From: Escherichia coli
Lineage (GTDB): Bacteria > Pseudomonadota > Gammaproteobacteria > Enterobacterales > Enterobacteriaceae
Direction: 5' to 3' (one strand)
Assembly (NCBI RefSeq): GCF_045037415.1
Contig: NZ_CP173438.1
Length of the DNA: 64,000 nt
Shown: piece after piece, positions 30,401 to 33,400 of the stretch
Layout of the letters: every line of letters starts with the position of its first letter
How positions within the stretch are numbered: the stretch's first letter is position 1
Program-made: the position numbers

Positions 30401-33400
30401 ACTGCCAACCGGGCGGGCAAGGTGCGTTATCATTTTGTTTTAATTTTGCCAGTTCAACGGCGTATAACACAGCAGCAGGCGGACGCTGCAGGTGATTATT
30501 CTGCGGTGACATATATTCATCCCTGAAATGTATTAATGAAATAAACGATATTTTACGCGCAATAAATGTTTGGCGCATTAGTTGTTTGAGCGGAAAATAT
30601 CTGGAAAGCAGATCGCAAAAAATAAAAAAACCTGCTGGTGAGGCAGGTTCTTTTATTTATTACTTTCAGGCCTAACACCGCAGCCTGTGCAACATCGTGT
30701 TCCAACGAACGAATTATAACCACCGCTGGACCCCGTTGCAATTAAGATAATGAGATTTATAATCCTGACTGTTGGGAGGTTGCGCCGGATCGAACCAATT
30801 TCAAGTCCTGGCTACCGGACGGGTGGTGCTGCAGGTGGTGCCTGATCCGGAGTGCAACATCGTGGTCCAACATACGTAAACCAGTATCGACAGGCAGTGT
30901 AAGGGTAAGGTGCTGGTGTTGCGCTCCTTAAAAGGAGAGCGGATGGACACGCTGACACAAAAGTTAACCGTGCTCATTGCTGTACTGGAGCTATTAGTGG
31001 CTCTGTTACGGTTGATTGATTTGTTGAAGTAACGGGCAAATTGAAACGCATCTAAGGGGGAATACCGTTTCCCCCTTTAATAAAGCTATACTCGCCATAC
31101 TTCAAGTTGCATGTGCTGCGACTGCGTTCGTTCACCCCTGTCACTTACTTTAGTAAGCTCCTGGGGACTCACTCGCTTATCGCCTTCCTGCGACTTGAAT
31201 TATCTAGAGTATATTATTCTATTTCTTGGTTGAATATATTCTGTAGTTCACAATTAAAAATTGCTATTACTGTTTCATGTGATTCACCTCGTAATTTCCG
31301 CTCATCAATAAACTCATCTCTTATATAAATCAACGCATCATTTATTAGTGGTCGGCATCTTCTCGATCACGTTGATGAAATGTTGGATGTAGCCGGAATC
31401 GCTCCAGTCGATAGACGGAACCTGTAAATAATTCAGAGCATTTATGGATTTCAAGTCTGAAGGAAAACGGCTCTTCAGGTACAGGGATCTCATAATCGTA
31501 AATAGCAACCAGCTCTTTTTGCACGATCATCGCTTCCCCCGCTGGTAGGTCGTGTTGATAACGGGCAGTTGCATCACTGCCCGCTGTGTTTTAATGGAAA
31601 ATGACGTCAGGTGCGCTTAATGCCTCACTCAAATCAAACACATCAAGTTCGGCAAAAGTGACGGATTTATTGTCACGGTAAACCCGAAGAGAACGGAAGC
31701 TCATTAGCGCTTTGCTATCAACATTGTAGTGGTTAAAACCGGGTGAAAACTTAAGGACCAGCCGGTACGCACCTAAGTCATAGACAAATGCGTCCTCATA
31801 GCCTGACTCCCAGCCTTTGTATCGCATTCCCATAAGTTGCCCAACGGTAGCGGATTTACCTTCCCAGCGAGTCAGGCTGTTACTGGCTGACTCGTCAGGT
31901 GTGAGCAGCACCGTGCGCCGCGCCAACTGGCGAAAAGGCGGCATAATTTCGTAATCGGCAAAAAGCTGTGCAAATTCACTGCGCATTTCTGCTGCCATTT
32001 CTAACGGGTGGGCAATGCCAATCAGAGCATCCGCAGGCAGGTCAATGGGCTCATCTTGTGCATTGCAGAACTCCCCCTCTGCGGCCACACGAAAGGCGTT
32101 GAGTAAACGACGCGGTTCATTTGCCGGATAAACCCCCCATATTAATCGCTGGGTAACCAGGCGGGTAAAGGGATGATTAACAAACAGAGAATGAAAATCT
32201 GCCAGCGACCAGCGGCGGGTGATACGTAGGGCTGCTTCAAGACGTGGGAGCAGGTTTTTGCTCACCTGAGTGGCATCTTTTTTTAGCCCTTTTAGTCGGG
32301 CCAGTGCCTCGGGCGCTTTCAGTTGATCGTCATCGGCGCGCAACCGGGGAACACTTTTCTGGCGAACGTTTTGCTGATCAAAGATAACCGGGTTGAGGTT
32401 TTCATCGAAGCGAACGGTAAACTGCCGGGGACCAAAATCAAAACTCAACGCCTGCGGATCATCAAGGCCCAATGTTGGGACTAATCTGTCCGCTAACTCT
32501 TCCTGGCTTAGCCCGCGATTTTCTGCGACCACCTGAAGAAATTCCGCCGCGTTATCACGTAAGGAGCGGGATTTCGCCCGTTGGGATATATGGTGCAGCT
32601 GTATCAGCGCCATATCATTATTCATCAGGGTAAGGATGTTCAGGCCACTGACAGCACGGGCAGATTTGCCTTCTTGTGGCCAGGCGAGGATCTGTGTCGT
32701 CAGATCTCGTGCCGTGGTTTCGTCACCAAAGAGACTTAACGCCAGAAATGCCCAGTTGTCTTTTGCGGGGGCACCAGCTTGTTGCCACGCGGTGAAAAGA
32801 TCCCAGGCAAAAGCTGCCAGCGTTTGCGGCTGGCAAAACGTTTTCAGCTGTTCCAGTCCGCCATAAAAACGTCCGCCCTGGGTAAAGCGCAGCATTTCGC
32901 CGATAATTTCCAGAGCGTCATCGGTAACAGGCTGATTATTAGTGATAAGGCGCGGCCTGGACCACATTCCCGGATGCCAGAAATCAGGAGCTTTTGGAAT
33001 ACGTGCCGGGTAAATTTCTATTGGACCCAGTTTAAGTAATTGCTCCAGGGCAGGCCATACATCTGTACGCTGCCAGCGGTTTGCCACGGTTTGCAGTAAT
33101 TCGCCATGCCCTTGTTCATACAGTAAACGCAGGGCAAGTAATGCAGCTTCGCTATTATCGCTGGGTTTTGTAAAGACAAGAGGGATAAGTGCAGTAGCCG
33201 TATGTTCCGGCCATTGTAAAATCCACTGGCGAGCCAGATCACGCTGCGCCGCGAAACGTCGCCAGACGCGGGCAACGGGCAGGGCCAGTTCTGTTGCGCC
33301 GAAATTTAAAATTAACGGAAATGTTTCTTTTGGATGATGTGAAAAAGCCAATAACAGGCCAGGTAATGTATCCAACCCGAGGATACTGAGAAAATAGTCC

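Follow-up and report, generated by a model that had tools for sequence, protein, structure and literature searches.

Positions 31100-31345 (246 bp) of a 64,000-nucleotide stretch of Escherichia coli DNA (hereafter the window) lie between a toxin-antitoxin module and the small gene yehK. On the minus strand is read the yehI-yehK-yehL-yehM cluster, with yehI (encoding a DUF4132 protein) at 31591-35223 and yehL (encoding an AAA ATPase) at 29424-30512, and in the spacer between yehK and yehL lies the type I toxin gene zorO together with orzO, which encodes its antitoxin small RNA. We conclude that the 246-bp interval is almost certainly a composite of two unrelated and known features. Its left part belongs to a copy of the repeat known as enterobacterial repetitive intergenic consensus (ERIC), whereas its right part is the AT-rich 3' end of yehK, a gene that carries a frameshift in this strain. 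All of the components found at the site are of known kinds and have been annotated or described before.

The interval had been singled out in a first-pass annotation as an islet markedly more AT-rich than its flanks. This holds for the average, the G + C content being 37.4% in 31100-31345 versus 50.9% in the whole window, so that the interval ranks among the 3.6% of 246-bp windows poorest in G + C. However, the composition varies along the interval. An essentially normal G + C content of 48.2% is found in its left 114 bp (31100-31213), and only the right half, the 132 bp at 31214-31345, is AT-rich with 28.0% G + C (bottom 0.4% for windows of 132 bp). Nor is 31100-31345 exceptional at the 246-bp scale, where the window has seven further places of equal or higher A + T content. 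More AT-rich stretches of this length include 59411-59656 (22.8% G + C), 39061-39306 (29.7%), 48731-48976 (30.9%) and 1071-1316 (32.5%).

The left part falls within an imperfect palindrome of 127 bp (31087-31213, including the flanking TA dinucleotides 31087-31088 and 31212-31213), which is an ERIC element. ERIC, also called IRU or RU-1, is a non-autonomous palindromic repeat of enterobacteria that resembles miniature inverted-repeat transposable elements, and was reportedly described by Sharples and Lloyd in 1990 and by Hulton and coworkers in 1991. The ERIC2 primer site (31129-31150, minus strand, two mismatches) and the ERIC1R primer site (31151-31172, plus strand, three mismatches) lie back to back and face outward at the center of the element; matches of this quality have an expectation of 0 in shuffled sequences, and the primer pair was confirmed by a full-text literature search for both sequences, which appear together in 233 papers. 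In alignments, homology to the unlinked copies at yafP-rtcB and preT-yeiS spans exactly the 127 bp from TATACTC (beginning at 31087) to GAGTATA (ending at 31213). Of 5426 complete E. coli genomes, 5425 had matches in a sensitive BLAST search with 31088-31216, at 53,530 places in all with a median of 11 per genome, and the other full-length copies were 90-92% identical and occupied unrelated intergenic sites with no annotated feature beneath them. The predicted hairpin has a folding energy of -45.6 kcal/mol on the minus strand (z -5.6) and -41.6 kcal/mol on the plus strand (z -5.5), and none of 200 shuffled sequences folded as well.

These properties, namely the 127-bp length, a central inverted repeat with both primer sites, terminal inverted repeats, a duplicated flanking TA, a long hairpin, multiple dispersed intergenic copies and a location just 3' of a gene, are those of ERIC. 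Published ERIC sequences are 127 bp in length, have terminal inverted repeats, form a stable stem-loop, are often found at the 3' ends of genes and have TA termini with duplication of the target (PMC2229807, PMC3184786, PMC10969869). We found no essential difference between the window copy and ERICs in general, although the allelic series at the yehK-zorO site is unusually rich: the site can be empty, full, enlarged by a 78-bp insert, reduced by an internal 72-bp deletion or largely removed by a 395-bp deletion that reaches the toxin gene.

The element sits between the hairpin that follows zorO, which ends 9 bp before it, and the yehK stop codon, which it directly abuts. Strains ARS-C101 and M3 (loci L005 and L006) have an empty site which reads, on the minus strand, GAATAT-TA-GTTTATTAAAGGGGG with a single TA, whereas the filled site reads GAATAA-TA(ERIC)TA-GCTTTATTAAAGGGGG. 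Where the site is empty, yehK encodes 106 residues and the target TA makes up the opening dinucleotide of its TAG stop codon; in alleles that bear the ERIC, yehK ends one codon earlier at a TAA codon (31216-31214) that abuts the element. Both Escherichia albertii and Escherichia marmotae have yehK and a single intact zor-orz pair with no ERIC at the site, and thus absence of the element is the ancestral state. The ERIC is therefore a genuine insertion with duplication of a TA target, one that would have entered immediately past the zorO 3' hairpin, at the TA within the TAG that ends yehK. Hence, the earlier suggestion of a small insertion was right for 31087-31213, which is polymorphic, but the inserted DNA is the part with normal G + C content. 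We also noted a record labelled Escherichia fergusonii (GCA_017890025.1, locus L013) that aligns collinearly with 1.4 kb of the window (95% identity) and carries a full ERIC, a single zor-orz pair and an intact yehK. This is due either to an ERIC older than the split, to exchange of the region or to a wrong label on the record.

The right part of the interval is coding in origin. The first-pass annotation had seen no supported open reading frame (ORF) there, but 31214-31345 holds the final 44 codons of yehK, which is read from the minus strand. The gene occupies 31214-31530 (317 bp versus 318 bp in K-12) and has 36.9% G + C overall, compared with 28% in these 44 codons. K-12 yehK has 318 nucleotides and encodes 105 residues of unknown function, and when the window was aligned to the intact yehK genes of K-12 and O26 there was a single gap over the 318 nucleotides, at alignment column 190. 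The missing base lies at 31350-31352 on the minus strand, where K-12 has GACCCG and the window has GA-CCA. In place of an intact frame of 105-106 codons, translation of the window gene meets a premature TAA (31345-31347, minus strand) after 61 codons, and RefSeq records label the product as frameshifted in ExPEC XM and in SK1144, the latter ('protein YehK, frameshifted') being 100% identical to the window. Because the single-base deletion leads to a stop after 61 codons, yehK is a pseudogene here. The small ORF that had been placed on the yehI-proximal side of the interval is the surviving 61-codon 5' part of yehK (31345-31530, minus strand). The window gene resembles K-12 yehK in its orthologous position, its nucleotide identity of about 97% and its AT-rich 3' end, and differs in that its product is truncated to 61 residues. 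If the missing base is restored, 6 of the 105 residues differ between the window protein and K-12 YehK.

The change falls in a short run of C residues (CCC to CC), as might be expected of a sequencing error or of a programmed frameshift that would leave the AT-rich part translated. Either explanation is extremely improbable. The same allele, with two linked substitutions, is present in 925 independent complete genomes, as given by a 40-bp probe across the deletion that matched 925 of the 5426 genomes, among them UM146 and O25b:H4-ST131, both of which we take to belong to phylogroup B2. No slippery site or stimulatory motif was seen near the deletion on inspection by eye, no motif scan having been run. 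Beyond the frameshift K-12 and the window differ by three non-synonymous changes and one synonymous change, which fits relaxed constraint, although such tiny counts are too small to test. The frameshift is an allele of a lineage, not an error.

Between species the dN/dS ratio (non-synonymous to synonymous divergence) is 0.13-0.21 for yehK as a whole; for its AT-rich 44 codons it is 0.06-0.23, and for comparison yehL gives 0.02-0.04. Hence, where it is intact, yehK is under purifying selection and behaves as a coding gene. It lies beside yehI and yehL in SK1144, K-12, O26, E. albertii, E. fergusonii and E. marmotae. The Pfam and NCBIfam collections gave no family for either YehK or ZorO, and homologues of YehK were found only in Escherichia and Shigella. 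The segment 31195-31345 is present in 5254 of the 5426 genomes, among them that of K-12, with an identity of about 97%, and also in E. albertii and E. marmotae.

These data bear on the proposal that the whole AT-rich stretch is a small islet acquired horizontally by some strains. The proposal draws on the average G + C content of 37% and on the absence from K-12 of the left 95 bp of the interval. However, the polymorphic part is the ERIC with its 48% G + C, and the AT-rich part, which the first-pass annotation itself said should not be conserved in all E. coli including K-12 if it had been acquired, is found in the 5254 genomes just mentioned. Moreover, the AT-rich part is the 3' end of yehK in E. 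albertii and E. marmotae as well, it is under purifying selection as coding sequence, and no homologue of yehK from a low-G + C donor was found. We consider acquisition of the stretch as an islet very improbable. The preferred reading of the right part is that the 3' end of yehK is intrinsically AT-rich, that the deletion of one base would halt translation at 31345-31347 in this lineage, and that the AT-rich segment would now be an untranslated and decaying coding sequence.

Two observations on the surroundings of yehK may be recorded. K-12 and E. marmotae have diverged at synonymous sites by 0.57 in yehK and by 0.155 in the adjacent yehL, a contrast that suggests a recombination boundary or mosaic ancestry in the yehK-yehL spacer. 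In addition, the 60-bp yehI-yehK spacer contains a terminator-like G + C hairpin followed by a T run (31562-31583) on the plus strand, antisense to the yeh genes.

Several candidate features within or near the interval were set aside. A promoter and terminator scan found nothing inside 31100-31345, and a permissive Rfam scan of 30300-31800 gave no RNA family above threshold within the interval, the sole such match being OrzO-P, which lies outside. A full-length match to the Vibrio family V_AS5 (31091-31214) reached 27.5 bits, the gathering score being 96, and was rejected as evidence of membership; it plausibly reflects similarity derived from the ERIC sequence. Matches to the Thr and Trp leaders and to STnc370 were rejected as terminator look-alikes on OrzO. 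A 73-codon ORF on the plus strand (31107-31328) was judged spurious because it crosses the ERIC and is antisense to yehK, and a 39-codon ORF on the minus strand (31214-31333) is merely the tail of yehK read out of frame.

The alleles were counted in the 5426 complete genomes, a clonally biased database and not a natural population. A full or long ERIC was found in 906 genomes. Among these, 641 match at 99% identity or better and were taken to have a contiguous ERIC as in the window, and 265 match at 95-99% identity and are inferred to have, as in ExPEC XM and R32_14_1F, an internal insert of 78 bp. This insert of 78-79 bp lies between window positions 31126 and 31128 (1239-1317 in locus L004 and about 1521-1600 in locus L007), and its sequence occurs in 649 genomes, usually once in each, 275 of these at 95% identity or better and 370 at 90-95%. 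A 55-bp remnant, the type of O26 and O157, was detected with a junction probe in 888 genomes. It consists of window positions 31087-31123 joined to 31196-31213 (1775-1826 in locus L003) and results from a 72-bp deletion between two copies of the 8-bp direct repeat CTGCGACT within the ERIC, the copies at 31116-31123 and 31188-31195 (plus strand) giving the left and right end-points, respectively. The K-12 type, in which a 395-bp deletion (30802-31196) leaves the last 17 bp of the ERIC, accounts for 1840 genomes. Exact matches to the empty junction were found in at least 485 genomes, and an evenly spaced sample puts the empty site nearer 23% of genomes.

The K-12-type deletion removes most of the zor 5' untranslated region (UTR), the toxin ORF, the hairpin that follows it and nearly all of the ERIC, and leaves OrzPmg as an orphan antitoxin. 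Both ends of the deletion lie in an inverted repeat of 7 bp (TTCAAGT, 30800-30806, and ACTTGAA, 31193-31199) with 2 bp of microhomology (1495-1510 in locus L002). As the right end-point is inside the right arm of the ERIC, K-12 descends from an allele that bore the element. The deletion allele corresponds to the 'orz-only' class, which comprises about 30% of E. coli and includes MG1655 with its OrzPmg (PMC11264685). The same copy of the ERIC was also hit by the 72-bp slippage deletion and by the 78-bp insertion in other lineages. It is conceivable, although rather unlikely, that the ERIC is a fragile site that has shaped the locus and that misalignment mediated by the ERIC may have led to the loss of the gene for the ZorO/ZorP toxin.

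The window has a single toxin-antitoxin pair. The zorO ORF (30943-31032, plus strand) encodes a 29-residue type I toxin, MDTLTQKLTVLIAVLELLVALLRLIDLLK, and orzO (30624-30699, minus strand) is a full-length match to Rfam RF02083, OrzO-P (98.6 bits versus a gathering score of 60, E 1e-16). The promoter scan placed divergent promoters with the hexamers TTGCAA and TATAAT at 30713-30763, that of zorO at 30736-30763 on the plus strand and that of orzO at 30741-30713 on the minus strand. These hexamers are the same as those in Table 3 of PMC11264685. Residues T3 and A20 of the window toxin are those of the ZorO type, ZorP having the substitution T3S and ZorQ the substitution A20S (PMC11264685). The assignment to ZorO rests on the OrzO-P match, the promoter hexamers, the 29-residue length and the published variant positions; the peptide string was not found in the text of PMC9860968. 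A G + C-rich hairpin 3' of zorO (AAGGGGGAA-loop-TTCCCCCTT, 31054-31077, plus strand), seen in the fold, is the presumed terminator and is conserved in all alleles and outgroups, although its T run is weak and a simple terminator scan did not call it. In E. albertii there is an intact 29-residue Zor ORF, MDTLTQRLTVLITVLELLVALLRLIDLLK (locus L011, 2875-2964, minus strand), and OrzO-P scores above threshold both in this species (locus L011, 3210-3283, plus strand) and in E. marmotae (locus L016, 3209-3284, plus strand). Nucleotide identity of the zor-orz region to the window is 85% in E. albertii and 95% in E. marmotae.

Like the published zor-orz locus, the window has one pair with the published promoter hexamers, ribosome-binding site, 29-residue ORF and OrzO RNA, but the flagged interval is not part of it and starts past the zorO 3' hairpin. 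In favor of the idea that the interval is a regulatory region for the toxin, whether as a promoter, a 5' UTR or an antitoxin target of zorO-orzO, is its distance from the toxin ORF of no more than about 70 bp. A cis-acting role of this kind is highly improbable. The interval is 3' of both the zorO stop codon and the hairpin, the promoters (30713-30763) are 350 bp away and OrzO is at 30624-30699. Moreover, the regulation described in the literature acts on the 174-nucleotide 5' UTR (PMC5397157; PMC11264685), and intact zor-orz loci exist without any ERIC in ARS-C101, M3, E. albertii and E. marmotae. The idea of a toxin regulator thus fails on grounds of position.

The remaining question concerns the ERIC copy as an RNA. 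It would form a long hairpin in any RNA that reads through from yehK to yehL or from zorO, and could on this basis change mRNA stability through RNase E or act as an insulator between the convergent yehK and zorO genes. A strong hairpin is predicted on both strands, the element begins immediately after the yehK stop codon such that a terminating ribosome would open the base of the stem, and an ERIC or its remnant is kept at the site in about two-thirds of genomes. There is also a precedent in that Yersinia ERICs are transcribed together with the genes beside them and, where located directly after stop codons, affect mRNA decay, according to reviews (PMC2229807, PMC3184786, PMC10969869). However, the element is dispensable, being absent, cut to 55 bp, split by the 78-bp insert or almost wholly deleted in large parts of E. 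coli, and in the window yehK translation stops 131 nucleotides upstream, so that unfolding dependent on ribosomes cannot occur. A functional hairpin is thus improbable here. As the element has been repeatedly lost, truncated and interrupted at this site and the frameshift keeps ribosomes 131 nucleotides away, the ERIC is unlikely to be important. It would be a neutral relic, the hairpin of which has at most a mild effect on how stable the yehK-yehL transcript is.

Most likely, neither the ERIC nor the frameshifted yehK end has a dedicated function here. Several points weigh against this account or against its details. The lack of a dedicated function is deduced from an absence of signals, and the ERIC may have a regulatory effect on mRNA decay like that of the Yersinia elements that lie right after stop codons. 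The flanks of the filled and empty sites also differ by a T to A change, which creates the TAA stop, and by one extra C, and these two additional changes mean that the reconstruction of the target site is not base-perfect. Finally, the junction probes left about 1300 genomes without an allele class, and for these the evenly spaced sample gives only an approximate assignment.

As RefSeq records leave ERIC copies unannotated, an ERIC beside a frameshifted small gene resembles unexplained non-coding DNA. Naming both parts removes the false lead of an islet or a toxin regulator, and has little significance beyond correct annotation. The allelic series is a neat phylogenetic marker of the yehK-yehL region, and it describes in concrete molecular terms where, on the right, the deletion of the published 'orz-only' strains ends.

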